A stretch of DNA of 60,263 bases, counting the filler. It is 7 parts of 7 records of this genome, joined end to end, with 100 filler letters (N's around TTAATTAATTAA, not from the genome) between each part and the next. Parts side by side here need not be neighbours in the genome. Positions count along the whole stretch, not along the records: positions 5,933 to 15,078 come from SRR31156797_19708; 6 more parts are not named here. One strand, 5' to 3'. Positions 3,705 through 15,710 of this stretch are shown here, piece by piece. Under the pieces are notes generated by a model. That model had not been told where the DNA came from. It worked only from the letters and a program-made list of their open reading frames with translations, and made no database searches. Both the position numbers and the translations under genes were made by a program. Each line of letters begins with the position of its first letter. Within the stretch, counting starts at the first letter, position 1.

Positions 3705-3860
3705 TTACAAGTTCAGGCAAAAGACAAAAATTGCCCGGATAAGATAAAAAGGATTTATTTTATTGTAAAATGTTGTTAAAAAACTATTTATATGGTATTT
3801 TGCTAATCAATAGATGAAACTCAATCAAATCTTAATTATATGACATATAAGAGGATATTT

Positions 3861-4073
3861 ATGACAATCATACCATTTGCACCCATAGAGAGAGTAATAA
3901 GGAATGCAGGAGCACAGAGAGTTAGCGAGTCTGCTGGTGTTGCACTTACCGAGATACTGGAAGAATACGGACTCGAAATATCAAGGGAAGCTATCAAGCT
4001 CGCAGAACATGCAGGAAGAAAAACTGTGAAGGCCGAGGATATTGATCTTGCAAAAGAAATGCTGAACAAGTGA
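3861..4073 (+). CDS. Archaeal histone (HMfB family)
   Basis: PFAPIERVIRNAGAQRVS...AEHAGRKTVKAEDI histone fold. ATG 3861 follows GAGG; TTTATA box near 3787. Confidence 0.95.
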   Translation: MTIIPFAPIERVIRNAGAQRVSESAGVALTEILEEYGLEISREAIKLAEHAGRKTVKAEDIDLAKEMLNK

Positions 4074-4653: not shown

Positions 4654-5610
4654 TTATTCCTTCCCTGATAAAGCAAAGTGTGCCAGCAGACATTCCAGTT
4701 GTATTCTTTCATTGGCACCTTCCGTAAGCCTGAAATCAATTTCCCCGATGACATCTATCAGTTCAACCATCTTTCTCTCAGATATATCAAGATCAAACAT
4801 TGCCCTGTATATCTGCCCCACTACATCCTCACCGGAGAGACCCTGTTCAAGCAGCAGAATGTCGAGGTGCTTTCTGGCAGCACTGAAGTTTCCTTCAAGG
4901 GCGGTTTCGATAAGCTCCTTTACCTGCTCAGGACGTGCTGTTGCAGTGATCTTGTATATGGCATCCTTGTGAATTGTATCTGAAGTGAGTGCTGCAGCCT
5001 GAAGGGCATTTATTGCCTTTCTCATATCACCCTGCGCAATGTACTTGATGGCATCCACACCATCGTCTGCAATGTCCAGTCCTTCATTAGTTGCCACAAA
5101 ACGAACGCGTTCTGCCACAGATTCATCAGAAAGTGCACGGAACCTGTAAACCGCACATCTTGATTGGATAGGCTCGATTATCTTGGATGAGTAGTTGCAT
5201 GAAAGGATGAAGCGACAATTGTTGGTATAGCGCTCCATTGTACGCCTGAGGGCAGATTGGGCATCTGAAGTCAGAGCATCAGCCTCATCAAGGAATATTA
5301 TCTTAAAATCTGCACCACCGATGGGAGTGGTCTTGGCGAAGTTCTTTATCTTGGTCCTTACAACATCGATACCACGTTCATCAGATGCATTAAGCTCTGT
5401 GAAGTTCTCACGCCATGAATCCTCGAAAAGCTCACGTGCGATCGAAACGGAAGTAGCTGTTTTTCCTACTCCGGGAGGACCTGAGAACAGAAGATGTGGA
5501 AGGTTTCTCGTCTTAATATACGACTTCAGCCTTTCTACGGCCTCTTTCTGACCCACTACATCATCGAGTTTAAAGGGCCTATACTTTTCAATCCATATCT
5601 CTTCTTTAAT
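4654..5610 (-). CDS. rfcS: Replication factor C small subunit
   Basis: WIEKYRP, GPPGVGKT, ELNASDERG, LDEADALT, SRC and GDMR motifs. Start uncertain (ATT 5610 or TTG 5646). Confidence 0.96.
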   Translation of the reverse strand: MKEEIWIEKYRPFKLDDVVGQKEAVERLKSYIKTRNLPHLLFSGPPGVGKTATSVSIARELFEDSWRENFTELNASDERGIDVVRTKIKNFAKTTPIGGADFKIIFLDEADALTSDAQSALRRTMERYTNNCRFILSCNYSSKIIEPIQSRCAVYRFRALSDESVAERVRFVATNEGLDIADDGVDAIKYIAQGDMRKAINALQAAALTSDTIHKDAIYKITATARPEQVKELIETALEGNFSAARKHLDILLLEQGLSGEDVVGQIYRAMFDLDISERKMVELIDVIGEIDFRLTEGANERIQLECLLAHFALSGKE

Positions 5611-5662
5611 TTCAAACCCTCCGCATAGAAGTATGCATACCTGCAATAATAGGCAGATGTAG

Positions 5663-5832: not shown

Positions 5833-5932
5833 NNNNNNNNNNNNNNNNNNNNNNNNNNNNNNNNNNNNNNNNNNNNTTAATTAATTAANNNNNNNNNNNN
5901 NNNNNNNNNNNNNNNNNNNNNNNNNNNNNNNN
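5833..5932. other. Artificial contig linker
   Basis: N44-TTAATTAATTAA-N44, stops in all six frames. Confidence 0.99.
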
Positions 5933-6024
5933 TTGATTAAAAAAGTTTATGCTCATTTCATGGTATTATGAATTTACCGTAAAAATATAAAATTCACAAA
6001 CACCACCGGTAAATACAAAACCGG

Positions 6025-7761
6025 CTATTTTATGTAAACCTTCTTCACAAACCGGAAGTCCGGGGTAGCAACCGTTAAAACGTAAAATCCTGATTTGATT
6101 TCTGAAACGTCGAGGCGGTATTCATAATACCTGAGCATCTCCAGGTTTTTTTTCAAAACCGTCCTGCCAAAAATGTCGGTCAGGCTAAACGCAAAGGGTT
6201 TTTGGACAAGCTCTTCAAATTCAATTTTGAAATAAGTATCAGCAGGATTGGGATTCACTTCAATATCAAAAAAGCGGGGATTATTCTTAATCCTGATCAA
6301 TTCAAGCGAACCAAACCTTAAAATAACCCGTTCACTAAAACCTTTCAGGAACATACGCATGAAACCGCACGAATCTAAGGGTGGGGGATCATCAATAGCA
6401 TTTTCGTAAGTTTCGAGCGGAATATTAAAATGATACCATGTGCATTCGGTTTGTTCGCCGTTTGGCAACTCAATGCCTGTTGCATGACGCACCTGATCGA
6501 TGTAGTTCATACCCACCTGCATCTTATCGGGATATAGCCGGATTTTATATTGATAATAGTTTTCTTCCTGGTTCATTATCTGATCATAGTTTAAATCCTC
6601 TGAATCCGGCATGGACGTGGCAGTGGTTGGATATGGTTCGGGATTTTGATAATCTGTTGGGGAGTTCCCGTCGGTGCCGTTATATTGTTTGTATCTTTCG
6701 GTAATGCTCGAATACAGCGGGTCTTCATCAAAATCAGAGCCCCTGAAATAATGATAATCATCAGCAGAGGGATCGGCAAGTGCCTGTTGATACGCCAGGG
6801 AGGTGTCACCATAAAGTAATTTAATGGACGAATGGTATGCATAAAAGAAATCGAATTCAAGCTCGTTTCGCATCCCGTCCATTCCGGCGTCCTGATACGC
6901 GCGGGATCCGGACTGATTGCTGAAATTGTTCCATGCCGGATAATCATACTGCGGCAATAGCCCCCATTCCGAAAAACTATTACTGCCTGGAATGTCAGGA
7001 TTCTGAATCCCATGCTCGAAAAAAAATTTCGAATCGCACATTACATCCTCCGAAATATTCCCGAAATTAAAATACAGGTCACCTCCGGTGGTAAGGTCAT
7101 CAATAAACGGATCCATCAACCAGAATGCAAATGCGATTAATTTTTCTGATTCCTGACCATACAGATATGTTTCAATATTCCTTGTGATGCCGCCCCAGCG
7201 GCTTTCAGGTGCTTTAAGTGTGCCATCGCTTTTTATCCCCTCCGAAATGCCTTCCATTCCAAACGCATCGAAATTATAGGGGCCTCTTTCATTGGGGTAA
7301 TATGCCAGGTTAAGCATGGGCATGTTCAGTGGAATGCCGTCGGGAAATGACTTGTCCGGAAATAATTCATCTTCCCTGACTTGTCTTACCTTGTGATCCG
7401 ACAGATCATCAAGCCCAACATTGTCGGGTCTCAAGTTACCTGTGGTATCATAAAACAGCGGATCGATAATGTACCAGGCCAGTTTGGCACGGTTGTATCC
7501 TGTTGCCAGTTCGCCGGTATGATCCATTTCGGGGAACATGCCGGGTTCGGCTTGTTTTGCCGGGGTTGCTGCAAGATGCCAGAAGAAAAGATTTTTTAAG
7601 TCGATTTTTATCCATATAGTATCCTGAATTCCCGCATATTGATCACAATGATTTTGAGCGAATTTGTAGGATTGCTGTGCATGGGAATAAACTCCAGTGC
7701 AGAGAAAAAATGCAAGTGCTGCGATGCTGATAAACGGATACGGAGAGTTTAATCGCTTCAT
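6025..7761 (-). CDS. Secreted protein: SprA/Sov internal-domain homolog fused to a type A T9SS C-terminal domain
   Basis: Signal peptide from ATG 7761. SprA-like motifs GYNRAKLAWYIIDPLFY, YYPNERGPYN, RWGGI, FWLMDPF, GNISEDV, DPSADDYHYF, RYKQYNGTDGNSP, FMRMFLKGF. C-terminal VNPNPA...SGFYVLTV...KKVYIK. Confidence 0.8.
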   Translation of the reverse strand: MKRLNSPYPFISIAALAFFLCTGVYSHAQQSYKFAQNHCDQYAGIQDTIWIKIDLKNLFFWHLAATPAKQAEPGMFPEMDHTGELATGYNRAKLAWYIIDPLFYDTTGNLRPDNVGLDDLSDHKVRQVREDELFPDKSFPDGIPLNMPMLNLAYYPNERGPYNFDAFGMEGISEGIKSDGTLKAPESRWGGITRNIETYLYGQESEKLIAFAFWLMDPFIDDLTTGGDLYFNFGNISEDVMCDSKFFFEHGIQNPDIPGSNSFSEWGLLPQYDYPAWNNFSNQSGSRAYQDAGMDGMRNELEFDFFYAYHSSIKLLYGDTSLAYQQALADPSADDYHYFRGSDFDEDPLYSSITERYKQYNGTDGNSPTDYQNPEPYPTTATSMPDSEDLNYDQIMNQEENYYQYKIRLYPDKMQVGMNYIDQVRHATGIELPNGEQTECTWYHFNIPLETYENAIDDPPPLDSCGFMRMFLKGFSERVILRFGSLELIRIKNNPRFFDIEVNPNPADTYFKIEFEELVQKPFAFSLTDIFGRTVLKKNLEMLRYYEYRLDVSEIKSGFYVLTVATPDFRFVKKVYIK

Positions 7762-7783
7762 CTTGAAGTTTTCCCGTAAAGAT

Positions 7784-7818
7784 AAAAAAAGGTGGATTCC
7801 CGAATGAATCCACCTTTT
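7784..7818 (-). terminator. Intrinsic terminator after the S8 peptidase gene
   Basis: AAAAGGTGGATTC-6 nt-GAATCCACCTTTT perfect stem followed by T7 on the minus strand. Confidence 0.85.
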
Positions 7819-7840
7819 GTTTTTTTCTGAAAAATATATT

Positions 7841-10522
7841 TTATTCCACAACTACTTTGTGTGTGGCAACGCCATTTACGCTCTTCACATTCACCACATA
7901 CACGCCGTTTGTGAGGCCTGAAAGATTCACAGGAATCATGGTGGTTCCTGTTTTTGCGGTGGCTTCGGTTTCACGTACAAGCTGCCCGCTCATCGAAGTT
8001 ACCGAAACGGTTACATCGGATTCGGTGTTGGTGAAAAACTCTACCGTTACTTTGTCGCTGGCCGGGTTGGGGAACAGCGAAACGATGTCGAACGGAACTT
8101 CCACCGGCTCGTCAACGCCCACGAGGCTACCGATGAGCTGAATGTTGTCAACAAACACGTTATCACCTTCAGCAAAGAAATTATCATATAACCGGCATGA
8201 GGCCTGCAGCTGCAGTGAGAAATATCCGCCTGCCCATGGCTGGAGGTTGAATTTACGCTCAACAAATGGATCGGAGTTTGTCTCCGGATTGAAATTCAGG
8301 TTCCCGTCAACATCCGGGATTTGTTCAGTTTCGTTAACCAGTACCCTGAACCACGATAATGTGGTGCCAAGACTGTAGGTCTGTTTCAGATCCAATACCA
8401 GGTAAACACCGTCAAGTTCTGTTGCATTTACGTTACAGATATGCGCTGTGGAGTGGAATGCTACATTATCTTCCCAGGCTTGCTCCGGTGATGTGTTGGC
8501 CGGGCCGCCTGACCAACCCTGAAGGTTACTCACACCGGTAAAGTGCAATCCGTAGTCGCCTGTATATGCTGCCCTGGAATCAACCATAATAGCAGCATTT
8601 TCGTTGGCCATGAGTTCCATTTCGCTTGGAGGGCCTGATTCAAACCCATCTTCAAACGGCAGCAGCATACCTGATACATTCATGAAATCTTCATATATTA
8701 ATGCGGTTTCTCCGTTGGCGTTTGAAGCCTCAAAAGTTAAGGTATAAATGCCGGGTTCTGAAAACTGAACGACAGGGTTTTGTGATTCTGCTGTGGTTCC
8801 TTCAACAAATTCATAGGTGTCGGGCTCAAAGCTCCAGTTCCATGATGTAGGTTCGTAGAGCGATTCATCAGTAAACGAAACCGGGGTCATGATACAGGCG
8901 TTGGTTACATCCACCGAAAACATGAGATAAGGGCTCGGTGTGTTGGTAACTTCCACATAATCCTCCTTGGTGATAGTGGTTGTGCCAAATTCGTTGGTTA
9001 CTTCCAGTATAACATCAAATGTGCCTTCCGAGCTGTATGTTACGCTTGGGTTTTGATCGGTTGAAGAGGCTGGTGTGCCGCCCTCAAATGTCCAGCTCCA
9101 TGTTTCTGGTACGCCAAGTGTCATGTCGGTAAAATTAATGTCGCCTCCCGGAAGAATGATGGGAAGGTCTGCTTCAAATTCAGGTACGGGTTCATATGGA
9201 GTTGCCAGAACAGCCTGATATGCATTAATTCTTCCGGCGCCAAGCTGGCCGATATAATCCGGGTTTTGTACGTCGATGTTGTCGCATGTGCTCTCAAGAA
9301 TATCTTCTACCTGGTCAGGCGTGAGTTCCGGGTTAACTGAAAGGATAAGGCTGCAAAGGCCGGATACCATCGGGCAGGCCATTGAAGTGCCGTAAAAGGC
9401 GTCATAATTCCCCAGGGAAGTACTCGAATAAGTCGTGCTCAACAGGCCGTCAGGGCCTGAAGAGCCTGAACCACCCGGAGCAGAAACATCCACTCCGTCG
9501 CTGTAATTTGAGAATGAAGCCTTGCCATCATCTTCATCCGTAGCAGCAACAGAAATTACATGGTTGTAATGTGATGGATAGTGTGCAAGGGAATTATTAT
9601 CATTGCCGGCTGCGGCAACATAAACGATCCCGTTGTTATGCCCTGCATTAATCAGGTTCTGAACAGTTGACGAATATCCGGGGCCACCATATGACATACT
9701 GATAACATGTGCACCATTGTTTTGAGCCCATGACATTCCCGTTTGACCATAAATGCCATTAGGGTTTGAATTGTTGGCAGCTTTAACTGCAATAATGCTT
9801 GTGGTAAATCCAATACCCGCAATCCCAACATCATTATCGGTAATAGCCGTAGCCAGGCCTGAGCAGTGTGTTCCGTGTGACCATTCACCCGGATCACCTG
9901 ATCCAGGAGGATTTGAGCTATTTGTATTGTAAATTACATCACGCTGCAAAATGATCTTATCTGCGAGGTCTGGATGGTCTGCCCAAATGGCATTATCAAC
10001 GATAGCCACATGCACGTCGGGGCTGCCCTGCGTAATATCCCATGCCATTTCAGCCTGGATTTTATCGAGGTGCCAGTTCCAGTTGTTGAGGCCTGTAATC
10101 AGGTTATACAATGGATCGTTTGGCTGGTAATCGACGTATTGAAAAGGAACTTTTTCAGCGTATTCTATTTCAGGCATTTTTTCCAGTTCGGCAATGGCTT
10201 CTTCAAGTCGGGCGTGTTCTTCAATAGTGAATTCGAAAGACCTGAGCAACTTTGGGTCATTGTTATAATCAAACGGGCGTTTTAATGACTTGGCGCCAAA
10301 TTCAGCAATGAATGCGTTGAAATATGTTGCTTCGGCCAGGTCGACTGATTTGTCGTGCGCAACTTTAATGTCAGGATTGTATGTATCTTTAAACTTTACA
10401 TACAATTTGCAGTCCTCGTAATACTTTTCATAATTTTGAGCCTCGGTTTGAACGCTCAGAATTAAAAGCGCAAAGAGTGTGAATAGTAATGATTTAAAAA
10501 TTGTTGAAGTAAATTTCTTCAT
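7841..10522 (-). CDS. S8 subtilisin-like serine peptidase with two PKD domains and a T9SS type A CTD
   Basis: Catalytic triad VAIVDN / HGTHCSG / GTSMACP; PKD repeats (WSWTFEGG..STDQNP); LFPNPA...GVYVV CTD; signal peptide. Confidence 0.93.
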   Translation of the reverse strand: MKKFTSTIFKSLLFTLFALLILSVQTEAQNYEKYYEDCKLYVKFKDTYNPDIKVAHDKSVDLAEATYFNAFIAEFGAKSLKRPFDYNNDPKLLRSFEFTIEEHARLEEAIAELEKMPEIEYAEKVPFQYVDYQPNDPLYNLITGLNNWNWHLDKIQAEMAWDITQGSPDVHVAIVDNAIWADHPDLADKIILQRDVIYNTNSSNPPGSGDPGEWSHGTHCSGLATAITDNDVGIAGIGFTTSIIAVKAANNSNPNGIYGQTGMSWAQNNGAHVISMSYGGPGYSSTVQNLINAGHNNGIVYVAAAGNDNNSLAHYPSHYNHVISVAATDEDDGKASFSNYSDGVDVSAPGGSGSSGPDGLLSTTYSSTSLGNYDAFYGTSMACPMVSGLCSLILSVNPELTPDQVEDILESTCDNIDVQNPDYIGQLGAGRINAYQAVLATPYEPVPEFEADLPIILPGGDINFTDMTLGVPETWSWTFEGGTPASSTDQNPSVTYSSEGTFDVILEVTNEFGTTTITKEDYVEVTNTPSPYLMFSVDVTNACIMTPVSFTDESLYEPTSWNWSFEPDTYEFVEGTTAESQNPVVQFSEPGIYTLTFEASNANGETALIYEDFMNVSGMLLPFEDGFESGPPSEMELMANENAAIMVDSRAAYTGDYGLHFTGVSNLQGWSGGPANTSPEQAWEDNVAFHSTAHICNVNATELDGVYLVLDLKQTYSLGTTLSWFRVLVNETEQIPDVDGNLNFNPETNSDPFVERKFNLQPWAGGYFSLQLQASCRLYDNFFAEGDNVFVDNIQLIGSLVGVDEPVEVPFDIVSLFPNPASDKVTVEFFTNTESDVTVSVTSMSGQLVRETEATAKTGTTMIPVNLSGLTNGVYVVNVKSVNGVATHKVVVE

Positions 10523-10589
10523 GATAATGAGATTTATGTTTATGATTCAATGATTTGACAATCAATATTTATTCAAACGTAAGAAGCCG

Positions 10590-10597
10590 CAAATTTA
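10590..10597 (-). promoter_or_regulatory. Bacteroidota -7 promoter element (TAnnTTTG) for the S8 gene
   Basis: TAAATTTG on the minus strand about 70 nt upstream of the ATG. Confidence 0.55.
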
Positions 10598-10626
10598 TGT
10601 AAATCATTTAAAAATTTATAATAAAA

Positions 10627-11880
10627 ATGAAAATACTGATCAGGAATATCAAAGAACTGGTGCAGGTTGAAACGGTACCCAAATTAAAAGTTTCAGGAAG
10701 TGAAATGGCGTCACTGGAAACCATCAAAAATGCTTTCATCCTCGTTGAAGATGGAAAAATAGCAGACTTCGGCATGATGGATGATATTGCCGCCTCGCAT
10801 AAGGTAGCAGCTTCTTCAGATGCCCTTGAGGTAGATGCAACCGGTAAAATGGTCTTTCCTTCGTTTTGTGATTCGCACACCCACCTGGTTTATCCTGAAA
10901 GCCGTGAGATTGAGTATGTGGATAAGATCAAAGGCCTGTCATACGAAGAGATCGCCAAACGTGGAGGAGGTATTTTGAATTCCGCCCGCCGCATGCAGGA
11001 AGTTACAGAGGATGAACTGGTAGAGTCTGCTCTGGGCAGGCTGAATGAGACCATGGCATACGGAACCGGTGCCGTTGAAATTAAAAGTGGTTACGGCCTT
11101 ACTCCTGATACAGAGCTTAAAATGCTGCGTGTGATCCGGAAATTAAAAGAACTGTCACCACTCACCATCGTTGCAACATTTCTCGGGGCTCACGCTGTTC
11201 CCATGGAATACAAGAAGAACCAAAGCGAGTATGTTGATTTGGTGATCAACGAAATGATCCCCCTGGTGGCTTCCGAAGAACTGGCGGATTATATTGATGT
11301 TTTTTGTGATCGTGGATTCTTTACCGTTGAAGACACCGACCGCATCCTGAATGCCGGCATGAAATATGGCCTGCGCCCAAAAATCCACGCCAACGAACTG
11401 GATTATTCCGGTGGTATCCAGGTGGGGGTAAAATACAACGCACTTTCTGTTGATCACCTCGAATTTACAGGACCTGAAGAAATAGCGGCTTTGCGCGATT
11501 CTGAAACGATGCCCACAGTTTTGCCGGGTGCAGCATTTTTCCTGAATATGAAATATGCCCCGGCCCGCGAAATGATTGATGCCGGGCTGCCGGTGGCCAT
11601 GGCCAGCGACTTTAACCCAGGGTCCTCACCATCCGGAAATATGCAACTCATCCTTTCGATGGCCAGCATACTTTACCGCCTTACACCCGAAGAAGGGATC
11701 AATGCCACCACCATTAACACAGCTTATGCCATGGGCCTGAGCGATGAACTGGGCAGCATCGCCATTGGAAAAAAAGCCAATCTTTTCATCAGCTCAAAAA
11801 TTCCTAACCTGGAGTTTATGCCATATTACTATGGATCGAATAAAGTGGAGCGGGTGATGATAAACGGGGAGTTTAAATAG
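10627..11880 (+). CDS. hutI: Imidazolonepropionase
   Basis: DSHTHLV, GGGI, EIKSGYGL, TFLGAH, KIHANEL, SVDHLE, SDFNPGSSP. Confidence 0.96.
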   Translation: MKILIRNIKELVQVETVPKLKVSGSEMASLETIKNAFILVEDGKIADFGMMDDIAASHKVAASSDALEVDATGKMVFPSFCDSHTHLVYPESREIEYVDKIKGLSYEEIAKRGGGILNSARRMQEVTEDELVESALGRLNETMAYGTGAVEIKSGYGLTPDTELKMLRVIRKLKELSPLTIVATFLGAHAVPMEYKKNQSEYVDLVINEMIPLVASEELADYIDVFCDRGFFTVEDTDRILNAGMKYGLRPKIHANELDYSGGIQVGVKYNALSVDHLEFTGPEEIAALRDSETMPTVLPGAAFFLNMKYAPAREMIDAGLPVAMASDFNPGSSPSGNMQLILSMASILYRLTPEEGINATTINTAYAMGLSDELGSIAIGKKANLFISSKIPNLEFMPYYYGSNKVERVMINGEFK

Positions 11881-11906
11881 ATTGTGTCATTTATTTGGTA
11901 AATGCT

Positions 11907-11914
11907 TATTTTTG
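11907..11914 (+). promoter_or_regulatory. Bacteroidota -7 promoter element for the H-NOX operon
   Basis: TATTTTTG 25 nt upstream of ATG 11939. Confidence 0.55.
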
Positions 11915-11938
11915 AAAGATTAATAAATCAGCCTAAAA

Positions 11939-12481
11939 ATGAAAGGTATCATTTTTACAGAGTTTATCGAAATGGTGGAAGATAAGTTTGGCTTTGAAGT
12001 TTCCGAACATATCATCACCAATGCACACCTGCCATCAGGAGCTGCTTATACCGCTGTAGGGACATATGATTTTGACGAAATGGCGCAGCTGGTTACCAAC
12101 CTGAGTAAAAAAACTGGGCTTGAAATACCCAAACTGCTTTTTGTGTTTGGTGAGCATTTGTTCGGCAGGTTTTTTAATGTTTACCCCCACTTTTTTAAAG
12201 GTAAAAAAGATACATTTGAATTTCTGGGTAATATTGAAGATTATATCCATGTTGAGGTGAAAAAACTCTATCCCGATGCGCAACTGCCAATTATTGGCAC
12301 TTCCGTTTCCGGCGATGGAAACAAAATGACCATGGTATATAAAAGCAAGCGTAAGCTGGGTGACCTTGCACTTGGCCTGATAAACGGTTGCATCAAACAT
12401 TTTAAGGAAAAAATTGAAATTGAAAAAAGCAAGGTTGATGATGATGGTGGAGAGGTTACATTTACCCTGACCAAAAAATAA
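11939..12481 (+). CDS. Heme NO-binding (H-NOX/HNOB) protein
   Basis: MKGIIFTEF N-terminus, YTAVGTY, IHVEVKKLYPDA (proximal His) and the YxSxR heme motif (YKSKR). Confidence 0.9.
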   Translation: MKGIIFTEFIEMVEDKFGFEVSEHIITNAHLPSGAAYTAVGTYDFDEMAQLVTNLSKKTGLEIPKLLFVFGEHLFGRFFNVYPHFFKGKKDTFEFLGNIEDYIHVEVKKLYPDAQLPIIGTSVSGDGNKMTMVYKSKRKLGDLALGLINGCIKHFKEKIEIEKSKVDDDGGEVTFTLTKK

Positions 12482-12498
12482 TTCTACGAAACAACAGT

Positions 12499-13860
12499 AT
12501 GGATGAACTGGAGGCCGTAAAAAGCGCATTAAACCGGGAAAGGGCTGCACGAAAGCATGCCGAAAGCGTGATCGAGAAAAAGTCGCTTGAGATTTATCAG
12601 GCCAATCAGGAGTTGAAGCAGCTTAACAACTCACTTGAGCAAAAAATCCGGGAGCGAACCAGTCAAATAGAAGCATCGAGGCAGCAGTTGTTGAAAGCAA
12701 AAGAAGAAGCCGAGCGCTCAACCAAAGCAAAATCTTTGTTCCTTTCCAACATGAGCCACGAAATCCGGACACCCCTCAACGGTATCATCAGCATTACCGA
12801 AATCATGTTGCGCGAAACCGGTGAAAACAATATCAGGGATATGCTCAACACAGTTAAATATTCAGCCGATCACCTGCTGGGGATTATCAACGATATTCTT
12901 GACTTTTCTAAAATTGAATCCGGTAAAATGACTTTCGAAAAAATTTCGTTTAACCCAAAGGAACTGGTTGACAACCTGATGAAGGTGATGCAGTTCAAAG
13001 CCGACGAAAAGGATATCAAATTTAAGTTGGATTGGGATGACAAAATTCCCCAAAACCTGATTGGCGATAAAGTAAAACTTAACCAGATATTGACAAATTT
13101 GCTCGGCAATGCGTTTAAATTTACGGATCAGGGCCATGTTGATCTTTCGGTAAAAAACTTGGGGCGAAGTTCATCAGAAATGGTAAAACTCGAATTCATC
13201 GTTTCGGATAGTGGTATAGGGATTCCGGTAGATAGAATGGAAAGTGTTTTTGAGAGTTTTACACAATCTGCACAATCCATCACACGAAAATTTGGAGGAA
13301 CGGGCCTTGGGCTTACAATCACGAAACGACTTGTGGAACTGCAGGGTGGAACCATTCACGTGCAAAGCAGTGAAAATAGAGGCTCTGTATTTACCGTTGC
13401 CCTGGATTATCAGGTTTCCAAAATGAAAGCAAAAATTCAGAAAAAAATTTCAATTCAGGATCGTAAAGAGCTGGCGGGAATGCGAATATTGATCGTAGAA
13501 GACAACCAGGTAAACCAGTTTGTGGCTGTTAAAATCCTCAAAAACTGGGGTATCCAATCGATGATCTGCGAGAACGGGGTTGAAGCCATAAAGCTGCTCA
13601 GCAAAGAAACTTTTGATCTTATCCTGCTTGATCTTCACATGCCACTGATGGATGGTTACGAAACCTGCACCATCATACGCGATAAAAAGTCTCCTGTGAT
13701 TGATCACAATGTTCCGGTAATCGCACTCTCTGCCGATGCATTCACAGAAAACCGGCAGCGCATCCTTGATGTAGGTATGAACGATTTCTCCACCAAACCT
13801 ATCAATCAGGCAGAACTGTTCAATAAAATGTACGCATTACTAAAAAGCCAGGGTGAATAA
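12499..13860 (+). CDS. Cytoplasmic hybrid histidine kinase (coiled coil-HisKA-HATPase-REC)
   Basis: FLSNMSHEIRTPLNG, NLLGNAFKFT, DSGIGI, GGTGLGL; receiver domain VEDN..DLHMP..KP. Confidence 0.95.
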   Translation: MDELEAVKSALNRERAARKHAESVIEKKSLEIYQANQELKQLNNSLEQKIRERTSQIEASRQQLLKAKEEAERSTKAKSLFLSNMSHEIRTPLNGIISITEIMLRETGENNIRDMLNTVKYSADHLLGIINDILDFSKIESGKMTFEKISFNPKELVDNLMKVMQFKADEKDIKFKLDWDDKIPQNLIGDKVKLNQILTNLLGNAFKFTDQGHVDLSVKNLGRSSSEMVKLEFIVSDSGIGIPVDRMESVFESFTQSAQSITRKFGGTGLGLTITKRLVELQGGTIHVQSSENRGSVFTVALDYQVSKMKAKIQKKISIQDRKELAGMRILIVEDNQVNQFVAVKILKNWGIQSMICENGVEAIKLLSKETFDLILLDLHMPLMDGYETCTIIRDKKSPVIDHNVPVIALSADAFTENRQRILDVGMNDFSTKPINQAELFNKMYALLKSQGE

Positions 13861-14335
13861 AATGGAAGAAAACCAGTTTTTGAAATACAGCCACGATTCC
13901 GGATTTCTACATCATATCAGCAACACATTATGCGACGCAATATGTGTGGTGAACAAGGATATCGAAATTGTTTATCACAATGTGGAGTTTGCAGAGATGT
14001 TTGGTGAACCCGGTAAGGAATTGACGGGTAAACGTTTTGGCGAATCAATCAGTTGCAGGGGACACGAAAAAATGTATCCTGACAGCATATGTAACAATTG
14101 TAAACTCAGGTTATCCATGCTTGCTACAATTGTATCAGGATCCAACCAGGAAAAACAATCGATAGTGCTGGAGATGGAATCCGGTAACAAAGAGGAGTTG
14201 CGTTTGATTCAGTTTAAAAGCAACTTTATGGAATACGAGGGCGAAGAATACGCTGTTGTTGTGATGAACGACCTCACTGATATGGGCAATGAATCGCTGG
14301 AGTTCATCAACCGGTTTTATGAGGAGGGGAATTGA
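13853..14335 (+). CDS. Stand-alone PAS-like protein with Cys cluster
   Basis: DAICVVNKDIEIVYHN..F..MFG...ELTGK PAS pattern, and C-x2-H...CNNCKLR. Confidence 0.7.
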   Translation: MNKMEENQFLKYSHDSGFLHHISNTLCDAICVVNKDIEIVYHNVEFAEMFGEPGKELTGKRFGESISCRGHEKMYPDSICNNCKLRLSMLATIVSGSNQEKQSIVLEMESGNKEELRLIQFKSNFMEYEGEEYAVVVMNDLTDMGNESLEFINRFYEEGN

Positions 14336-14636
14336 TTTTTGTTCAGGATGTGTTTTCAAAGCATTGGGGTTCTTAAATATATAATCTACGATATATATAT
14401 TGTGAACTTATCCATAATTTAGGCAAACTTGTCAGGGTAGCAATCTGATTTTCGGAGGGAACATAAGATCGCTTCAAACCTTTTGGGTATTTTGATAGTA
14501 TTTGGTCAATTATTTCGAATCATCGATTTTTTATAAGGTATGCATTCTGATATCTTTTTATAATACTGGCTGAAGTCAATATATTTGAAATTCGTATATC
14601 TGATTTTCTAACGATCTATTACTCCGACAAAATATT

Positions 14637-14644
14637 TACCTTTG
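14637..14644 (+). promoter_or_regulatory. Bacteroidota -7 promoter element for ssrA
   Basis: TACCTTTG about 40 nt upstream of the mature tmRNA 5' end. Confidence 0.6.
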
Positions 14645-14681
14645 CAGGCCCGTTTTTTAGGGGGACGTTCATTTACATATT

Positions 14682-15078
14682 GGGGCTGACCGGTTTTGAC
14701 AGCAAGGAAGTGGTATAGTAAGCATGCCGGGCATTGGGAATGTGGCTCGTTAATAACTATTCCTAAAGCCATAACTGGCAACACAAATTATGCTCTCGCA
14801 GCGTAATCGAAGTATAGTAGATTACAGCTTAATCCCAACTCAAGGAGTTCGGGACGAGACTCTCCGCAGGCGGACATGCCTTGTTCCTGCCTGATAACGG
14901 GGTGACGCAAAACAGGGCTAGTCAGATGCAGGCTTCGGGCATCTGGCGAAACTTAAGAAGCTAAGGTTCAGGTTGGGTGTTTGTCCTCTGCCTGCTCCCG
15001 ACAATTAATGGCAAAATAAGCATGTAGAAAGCTCTATTGCTGCTTGTTTGGACCAGGGTTCGACTCCCTGCAGCTCCA
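14682..15078 (+). ncRNA. ssrA: tmRNA; tag (A)GNTNYALAA encoded at 14777-14806
   Basis: 5' GGGGCTGACCGGTTTTGAC; 3' T-arm and acceptor GGACCAGGGTTCGACTCCCTGCAGCTCCA; ATAACT precedes the resume codon; tag ends YALAA*. Confidence 0.97.
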
Positions 15079-15178
15079 NNNNNNNNNNNNNNNNNNNNNN
15101 NNNNNNNNNNNNNNNNNNNNNNTTAATTAATTAANNNNNNNNNNNNNNNNNNNNNNNNNNNNNNNNNNNNNNNNNNNN
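15079..15178. other. Artificial contig linker
   Basis: N-run with TTAATTAATTAA. Confidence 0.99.
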
Positions 15179-15710
15179 AATCCTGCATAAACCACTCTTC
15201 TTTAACAATTTCACCTTTATTTTTAAGCTCTTCAATAAAATGCTTTCTTCCAATTCCTCCGAGGATCTTTCCATCAGCTGGCGGAGTCAGATAACCATCT
15301 TCAGTTTTCACAAAAACATTGGTATAACTTCCCTCAAGAACAAAACCTGTCCTTTTTTCAATTAGAATGATCTCTTCACCAGCATTTTCAGTGTGTGATC
15401 TATGTGGCCAAACTTTTTTATCACCCTGGGGAAGATCAATTTCTTTGAGTTTTAAACTAAGTGGTTTTGCAAGATCAGCAAAAGGCTCTAAAGTTGTTTC
15501 AAGAGCACCATCTTCATGAAGAATTATCCTCAGTCGCGCGTCTTTAAGATTATTGTTTTCTAGAGCAACTTTCACAACGTCAACAACAGTTTTTTCATCC
15601 ATCTTAACTTTAAAAAAGTCCGCTCCATTTAGAATTCTCTCAACATGATCGTCAAGCCAAATGGCCTTAAAGTTATCAATTCTTAAAGTTGTAAAGAGCG
15701 CCTTACTCAA
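15179..15710 (-). CDS. pabC: Aminotransferase class IV / aminodeoxychorismate lyase, 3' truncated
   Basis: LFTTLR, HVERI, VLEGSYTNVF, LTPP...ILGGIGR; overlaps the pabB stop. Confidence 0.75.

Follow-up and report, generated by a model that had tools for sequence, protein, structure and literature searches.

A complete non-barrel domain of the SprA translocon as predicted type IX secretion system cargo in Bacteroidales

The gene at positions 6025..7761 (minus strand) of a 60,263-nucleotide stretch of assembled DNA, referred to as the window, almost certainly encodes a Sec-exported type IX secretion system (T9SS) cargo, with a C-terminal sorting domain (CTD) and, as its sole passenger, a complete 45-kDa non-barrel domain of SprA. 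The same near-certainty applies to its descent: the gene is best understood as the product of partial sprA duplication in Bacteroidales, kept by purifying selection, and the event as one that occurred at least three times with the same domain boundaries, with a lipoprotein signal elsewhere. SprA, or Sov, is the outer-membrane translocon of the T9SS and forms a 36-strand barrel; to our knowledge it is the largest known single-chain outer-membrane barrel, and we know of no case in which it is itself CTD cargo. The original prediction, in which a SprA insert had been recruited as T9SS cargo, is supported by a self-contained fold, by the occurrence of the architecture in many independent assemblies, and by a full SprA beside the free domain in four of four genomes.

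The open reading frame (ORF) is intact, as had been claimed: an ATG at 7761 and a stop codon at 6025-6027 bound 578 aa plus stop, which divide into a signal peptide, the SprA-insert domain, and a type A CTD, all on the minus strand. Residues 1-28 (7678..7761), read by eye as the signal peptide, consist of MKR, a hydrophobic run, and a predicted signal peptidase I cut between SHA and QQ. The Gln that this cut would leave at +1 is a habit of Bacteroidota secreted proteins, and most aligned homologues have an N-terminal hydrophobic stretch. The linker that follows, residues 29-44 (7630..7677), is poorly conserved; its residues CDQYAG are a faint remnant of DDFEG, the motif that precedes the domain in SprA. 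Residues 45-494 (6280..7629) make up the SprA-insert domain, which is homologous to residues 860-1264 of Flavobacterium johnsoniae SprA; its core is a jelly roll, elaborated by long loops that are acidic and helical. Residues 498-578 (NPNPA ... VKKVYIK; 6028..6270) are the type A CTD, recognized by profiles and by fold.

The similarity to SprA that had been predicted for the ~450-aa segment is significant by several measures. The NCBIfam SprA profile, TIGR04189, matches residues 52-490 with 407.6 bits (cut-off 200) through positions 773-1191 of 2319, a coverage of 18%, and Pfam places SprA_N on residues 323-495 (E 3e-47). The sole real match among PDB sequences is F. johnsoniae SprA (6h3i_A), whose residues 857-1274 align with residues 38-503 of the query protein in one colinear stretch at E 1.6e-62, and a search of the ESM Atlas returned SprA_N clusters only. 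All twelve SprA/Sov motifs on which the original prediction relied are present in the translation, in the order listed there. Identity of the domain to the solved SprA chain is 34-36%; it reaches 57% in the full-length SprAs of some Bacteroidales, as against 36-41% for many free forms of the domain. Conserved motifs are kept, and the domain superposes on solved SprA, for which structures 6H3I, 6H3J, 8GL6, and 8GL8 exist.

Unlike SprA/Sov, the query protein has no barrel, N-terminal region, or other insert. A signal peptide of its own immediately precedes the domain, a CTD immediately follows, and the SprA residues that flank the domain (DFE before, G.WR after) are lost. With 578 aa, and with a match restricted to the profile positions given above, it is not a full-length SprA of ~2300-2400 aa. 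Nor was a 36-strand barrel found in it, the matched part being one compact jelly-roll domain and the remainder signal peptide and CTD. In the four related genomes with such a gene, the free-domain protein exists beside full SprA and does not take its place.

Structural models agree with this assignment. An AlphaFold model of the whole protein, computed from an alignment of 28 family members, has a mean predicted local distance difference test score (pLDDT) of 72 and a predicted template modelling score (pTM) of 0.73, and its residues 46-493 superpose on SprA 861-1264 (8GL8) with a Z of 35.1 and a root-mean-square deviation (rmsd) of 3.0 Å over 371 residues. Folded alone from 88 aligned sequences, the 450-residue segment attains a pLDDT of 94.5 and a pTM of 0.93, with no stretch below 50, and superposes on SprA 860-1264 with a Z of 43.1 and an rmsd of 2.2 Å over 386 residues. 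Comparison with the solved SprA had been suggested as a check; its outcome, together with the jelly-roll core, favors the proposal that a non-barrel insert of SprA is able to fold autonomously, as modelled here.

A fold search of 48,161 PDB representatives, made without reliance on Foldseek, returned whole jelly-roll binding modules as the next-best matches after SprA. These are led by carbohydrate-binding modules (CBMs), namely CBM27 (1pmj, Z 9.8, 161/185 residues aligned to the segment model), CBM11 (1v0a, Z 9.1), CBM30 (2c24, Z 9.1), and the CBM27 of Thermotoga (1of3, Z 8.7); CBM15, CBM28, CBM8, CBM29, CBM4, chondroitinase N-terminal domains, MAM, Eph ligand-binding, and gingipain adhesin domains also match. 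The same CBMs are found with the whole-protein model, and Z to CBM27, CBM11, and CBM30 ranges from 7.6 to 9.8 across both models. Each CBM-type alignment spans model residues ~3 to ~449 and draws on strands at either end of the segment. These terminal strands therefore probably form one CBM-sized sandwich, with ~290 extra residues in acidic and helical loops, and are not barrel wall. Resemblance to the jelly-roll CBMs (CBM27, CBM11, CBM30, CBM15, CBM28) resides in this core, with which nearly whole modules align (161/185, 152/170, and 147/173 residues, Z 9.8-9.1); the query domain differs in that identity is 5-14% and ~290 of its 450 residues are extra loops and helices. Values of Z 7-10 lie in a range that the search tool flags as common and may reflect shared arrangement only, and the CBM matches are taken as evidence of the kind of fold, not of function.

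In SprA, segment 860-1264 is likely an extracellular insert outside the barrel. This placement follows from the CBM-like fold, from the outward export routes of the free forms (described below), and from reviews of the SprA inserts, according to which folded inserts close the barrel and >150 kDa of SprA is extracellular (PMC10202324, PMC12611786). Acidity of the domain is pronounced, its mean net charge being -38 for the query clade versus -26 for SprA, and metal ions may be bound by conserved loops rich in D and E, among them QDxGxDG, DPSxDDY, and PDxEDxNxD.

The type A CTD that the original prediction placed at the C-terminus is recovered by Por_Secre_tail (PF18962) on residues 503-577 with 36.6 bits against a cut-off of 27, and by TIGR04183 with 24.7 bits against a cut-off of 23, a narrow pass. 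By fold, residues 498-578 superpose on the CTDs of mirolase (Z 11.8) and NucA (Z 11.7). The protein thereby resembles type A CTD cargo in general (mirolase, 8QB1; the CTDs of NucA, RemA, and RemZ in 8GLK/8GL6/8GL8) in its succession of predicted signal peptide, passenger, and 80-residue C-terminal beta-sandwich, and its gene stands among other CTD cargo genes. It is unlike other type A cargo in that its passenger is a piece of the cargo's own channel and matches no enzyme or known adhesin family. Type A CTD cargo is described as either released or surface-linked (PMC10994853).

Homologues with the same plan are not confined to the window. A search limited to proteins of 317-1012 residues yielded 252 proteins, of which 120 were listed; 28 of these 120 contain both SprA_N and Por_Secre_tail, are 500-612 residues long and 36-83% identical to the query, and lie on contigs of up to 49 kb. 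An alignment of the query with 27 of them (P0009, which is N-terminally cut, was omitted) reproduces the order of hydrophobic N-terminus, variable linker, domain, a 6-14-residue link after the last strand (LRFxxLEL), and CTD. One CTD subgroup (P0080, P0082, P0085) is without ~41 loop residues (query ~250-290; alignment columns ~346-386) that are present in the other forms and in SprA, and this loop thus appears dispensable in the free state.

Sister forms of 435-487 residues combine the domain with a lipoprotein signal in place of a CTD and end within a few residues of the domain's end. Their lipobox Cys is trailed by residues rich in K, Q, D, and E (CQKDE, CKKEN, CEKSE), and acidic residues in this position resemble the Bacteroidota surface-lipoprotein export signal. 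Among cultured bacteria, Carboxylicivirga linearis and Carboxylicivirga sp. N1Y90 encode this form (439 and 443 aa), under the record name "T9SS outer membrane translocon Sov/SprA"; P0088, P0114, P0253, and P0293 are among the examples of the type. This CTD-less lipoprotein sister form is new here. Of 330 proteins gathered in all, 109 of ≤700 aa contain the whole domain: 40 with a CTD, 22 with a lipobox and no tail, and 32 that are apparent pieces of full SprA, the remaining 15 having a cut start or a missed lipobox pattern. Intact proteins under 700 aa that join the SprA segment to a CTD, which the original prediction proposed to look for, are accordingly represented in both sets.

When 1.84 billion representatives (50% identity) were searched with a profile built from the 28 CTD forms, 632 proteins were retrieved at E up to 1e-30; the best 150 of these include 15 of CTD type (435-643 aa), with a match that takes in the CTD, and 10 whose size of 435-498 aa is that of the lipoproteins. 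Public databases name such 435-640-aa proteins SprA because the domain alone passes the TIGR04189 equivalog cut-off of 200; all five free forms tested do so (308, 341, 426, 471, and 408 bits). This naming can mislead T9SS censuses. Certain "SprA" proteins of 500-1000 aa (P0024, P0063, P0069, P0087, P0117) lie on 100-280-kb contigs and so are not explained simply as pieces cut off at the end of a contig; sprA genes that are split or frameshifted are one possibility, further partial paralogues another.

The distribution of the free form was surveyed in 301 genomes across the order of G001, a Bacteroidales metagenome-assembled genome. The domain is present in 284 of them and occurs twice in five. 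In four of these five (G001, G025, G069, and G201) the second copy is a free CTD form, of 574, 639, 566, and 568 aa, respectively, and the accompanying SprA frames measure 1870 (cut by a contig end), 2227, 2499, and 2591 aa. Free forms are rare, and a full-length or near-full-length SprA accompanies them in all four genomes. In the fifth genome, G101, both copies lie in SprA-sized frames (2225 and 1070 aa; L016, L019) that occupy different contigs and represent either two SprA genes or a split or mixed assembly. In a phylum-wide sample of 201 genomes, a second, short match was found in G001 alone. At a contig end of G201 (L023, G201:C166:1-2355) there is a partial free-domain copy, a 379-aa open frame with 41% identity, which may be a second free copy within that genome. 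A metagenome scan with the query's own peptides found nothing.

The company of SprA in all four genomes could indicate that the free cap domain keeps the surface by which the SprA cap meets PorV or the cargo CTD and serves the T9SS in trans, by stabilizing, receiving, or releasing PorV-cargo complexes outside the channel, or by regulating the channel. PorA of Porphyromonas gingivalis, a small protein not derived from Sov and not expected to be related to the query in sequence or fold, offers a likeness to such a role: it is a CTD protein that acts in the secretion system itself and associates with Sov and PorV (PMC7463736). An accessory role would agree with the retention of most SprA-conserved columns and with the account in PMC10994853, the basis of this reading, where the cargo CTD is held with help from the SprA cap, the CTD buries ~1000 Å2 against SprA in the solved substrate complexes and its affinity for PorV is expected to fall after leaving SprA. 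We nevertheless consider it improbable, since it presupposes that the cap contacts CTD or PorV through residues 860-1264, a core function would call for a much commoner gene, and linkage to T9SS machinery genes is absent in the window, in L027 (a metagenome locus considered below), and in G001, G069, and G201.

Phylogenetic placement argues for repeated release of the domain. In a FastTree phylogeny of 209 of the 241 gathered proteins that cover the domain (32 were left out, P0009 among them), the query clade of 14 CTD forms is one group (support 100) deep inside the full-length SprAs, and the other free forms lie elsewhere. IQ-TREE analysis of 103 chosen rows gives six changes of CTD label, at least five of which are forced by well-supported branches. 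A single clade for all 48 free forms was rejected, at a cost of 160.8 log-likelihood units and an approximately unbiased test p value (p-AU) of 0.0009, the group having been named after the tree was seen. A 65-row search recovers the query clade with support of 100/100 as sister to two full SprAs (95/79), nested together with these inside nodes of 100/99, 100/97, 96/86, 99/94, and 100/99. The free forms of G069 and G201 (100/99) are nested inside the clade of their own two SprAs (100/100), and a third, mixed clade holds lipoprotein and CTD forms. The CTD forms were one clade in 0 of 200 bootstrap trees from the same 65 rows.

Pairwise comparisons point the same way. In a comparison with eight SprAs, each free copy from G001, G069, and G201 is most identical to the SprA of its own genome (55.6, 60.0, and 57.0%), while their mutual identity is 41-54%; the free form of G025 shows no preference for its own SprA. 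Beyond its own clade, the query CTD finds its best match in the CTD of a C10 peptidase of L027 (35%, 47.8 bits), whereas its scores against the CTDs of other free clades are at most 42.7 bits, that of G069 not being significant. The CTDs of the free clades are thus no closer to each other than to unrelated cargo CTDs, which argues for separate births. We read this as at least three such births, in each of which the same SprA segment probably acquired a signal peptide together with a CTD or lipobox that was available locally, and the anchor type appears to have switched within the mixed clade. A single origin followed by repeated gene conversion from SprA is less likely, as it needs more steps and the CTD relationships argue against it. 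The repeated placement of stand-alone forms in the SprA tree, the finding that CTDs of different clades are not nearest kin, and the same-position changes described next are new here.

Once freed, the domain has been maintained. Relative to the G001 orthologue, the ratio of nonsynonymous to synonymous substitution rates (dN/dS) is 0.18 for the whole gene, 0.18 for the domain, and 0.08 for the CTD, with dS of 1.0-1.9, which is near saturation; a dN/dS of ~0.18 indicates that the gene is kept under purifying selection. Of 201 columns conserved in at least 80% of 55 SprA rows, the query clade retains 127 and the mixed clade 99, and 13 are lost in both. Six of these 13 are the flanking SprA residues named above; among the other seven are the substitutions N136D, T395I/V, and Q444H, and the G069 and G201 copies likewise have His at 444. 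Convergent changes are at query residues 136, 209, 274, 395, 444, and 461; the lost flanks are at 45-47 and 491-494. Positions changed in both clades are candidate contact points with the rest of SprA.

The apparent birth of free copies at least three times from a resident sprA, with identical domain and boundaries on each occasion, raises the question of whether the protein mimics the translocon, a free copy of an exposed part of the SprA cap being shed or displayed to compete, as a decoy, with the real cap for agents that dock on it from outside (phage receptor-binding proteins, bacteriocins, or host factors, for instance). Such mimicry is unlikely in our estimation, but it would explain better than a binding module why SprA's jelly roll, of all, was freed repeatedly. 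It would also fit the closeness of three of the four genome copies to their own SprA, although such closeness is expected from descent alone, and an identity to the own SprA domain of only 43-60% falls short of what one would expect in a mimic, unless conservation is limited to a small exposed patch. A rare and patchy gene (4 of 301 genomes in the order, 0 of 200 others in the phylum-wide sample), free-form branches longer than SprA branches, and two export routes that both lead outside the cell are likewise in keeping with a decoy. So is the report that T9SS genes, sprA included, are mutated in phage-resistant F. psychrophilum (five isolates; PMC9804748), but the resistance mutations reported there are spread over numerous T9SS genes, so that a secreted receptor is indicated rather than SprA itself. 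No PADLOC or PHROGs family matches the query or a lipoprotein form, and no defence genes were seen nearby in the window or in the L027, G001, G069, and G201 neighbourhoods. Were an exposed cap domain indeed released repeatedly for this purpose, the convergent Q444H, T395I/V, and N136D could be adaptations to life outside the barrel, an interpretation about which we are equally doubtful.

A further rival reading denies the gene any function and sees in it a chimera of the assembly or the decaying remains of a sprA duplicate. The window (1-60263) is a chain of seven contigs joined by six linkers, N runs around TTAATTAATTAA, at 5877 (5833-5933), 15123 (~15080-15180), 22875, 31710, 45989, and 54886. 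G+C spans 27% to 60% among the contigs, which therefore derive from unrelated organisms. The SprA-domain gene lies on the contig at ~5934-15080, its stop codon 90 bp from the contig end, and is the sole match when full SprA is compared with the window by tblastn. The nearby contig end, the chain of unrelated contigs, and the fact that many truncated "SprA" database proteins are mere contig-end fragments might suggest an artefact. Against this stand the intact frame with signal peptide and CTD, the same architecture at 36-88% identity in many separate assemblies (contigs up to 148 kb), the low dN/dS, and conserved synteny with L027. In addition, one 6986-bp contig (depth ~356) from a Logan assembly of the probable source run contains the gene and covers 5934-9000 with 0 differences and no alternative joints; it ends at the same place as the window contig, near the gene's stop, and, being built from the same sequence data, is not independent support. 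Taken with the above, a functionless chimera or relic is very improbable.

The gene directly upstream, at 7841..10522 on the minus strand, encodes an 893-aa S8 subtilase with PKD domains and a type A CTD. A terminator-like hairpin of this gene (13 pairs, 7787..7818, minus strand) separates the two. The open frame of the SprA-domain gene could extend to a TTG at 7851, which would overlap the end of the upstream gene and cross the hairpin; the ATG at 7761 is the better start, as homologues begin there and the hairpin lies upstream of it. The motif TATCTTTA (7777..7784, minus strand), 15 nt before this ATG, resembles the -7 promoter element of Bacteroidota, whose consensus is TAnnTTTG, and is put forward as a motif only. 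A sigma-70 promoter scan, which does not cover Bacteroidota promoters, found 5 against 5.1 expected by chance.

The window is syntenic with metagenome locus L027 (7631-18173), the home of the 59%-identical P0007. The order there is a divergent amidohydrolase, an S8-PKD-CTD peptidase 72% identical to that of the window, the free-domain gene, and two C10-CUB-CTD peptidases; the C10 (streptopain-like) peptidases carry CUB domains, I69 inhibitor prodomains, and CTDs. With an S8 CTD peptidase beside it in the window and in L027, and C10 CTD peptidases next to it in L027, the gene belongs to a small island of T9SS cargo. Its divergence between these two loci exceeds that of its S8 neighbour (59% versus 72% identity), a faster evolution that would suit a decoy. 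A conserved operon was considered and rejected, as neighbours differ among the window/L027, G001, G069, and G201.

Elsewhere in the window, ORFs of the first contig look archaeal by eye, among them a histone-like protein (77 aa, 3840-4073) and one resembling the small subunit of replication factor C (RFC; 330 aa, 4654-5646). At 11939-14335 (+), on the contig of the SprA-domain gene by its position, a gene for an H-NOX (haem-NO-binding) protein precedes one for a hybrid histidine kinase/response regulator and an ORF with a PAS domain, likely an NO- or O2-sensing signalling operon.

For the function of the protein, our preferred reading, held tentatively, is that of a non-enzymatic binding module. 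Partial duplication of a resident sprA in a Bacteroidales lineage almost certainly yielded a copy that gained a signal peptide and a CTD; the type IX system would transport the product, the CTD would then be cut off, and the acidic jelly-roll domain would be released or tied to the cell surface. There it might, as CBM-type jelly rolls do, hold an external ligand, such as a glycan or surface polymer, near the secreted proteases encoded at the locus. This guess builds on the class of fold, the lack of an enzyme family, two surface-directed export routes, and the company of secreted proteases.

Several observations weigh against a binding module. The scores of the CBM matches are intermediate (Z 7-10), and likeness of fold is no proof of function; Pfam and NCBIfam assign the query protein to no family of CBMs or lectins at E up to 1, and no ligand is known for the domain in SprA. 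Other jelly-roll modules are plentiful in cells, so that a plain lectin role leaves the repeated choice of SprA's unexplained. The many invariant acidic and polar residues make a catalytic role possible. Secretion and localization are themselves predictions from sequence. No SusC/D-like genes adjoin the free-domain gene in G001, G069, or G201, and its neighbourhood, different in each of these and in the window, is not conserved beyond close relatives.

The original prediction knew of no described example, and no description of free SprA-domain proteins was found in the full-text literature, supplements and subscription journals being outside the search; public records name such proteins SprA. 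The role of the SprA cap is only starting to be understood. In one account, the cap assists CTD binding (PMC10994853). A natural soluble version of a cap domain, predicted to fold by itself, is an experimental handle on the binding partners of that domain, and the convergent changes in the free forms mark residues relevant to the built-in as opposed to the free state. Since the domain appears to have been released repeatedly and independently, it is presumably useful outside the channel. The family thus offers a clean example of a part of a secretion machine that has, by all indications, turned into cargo of the same machine.

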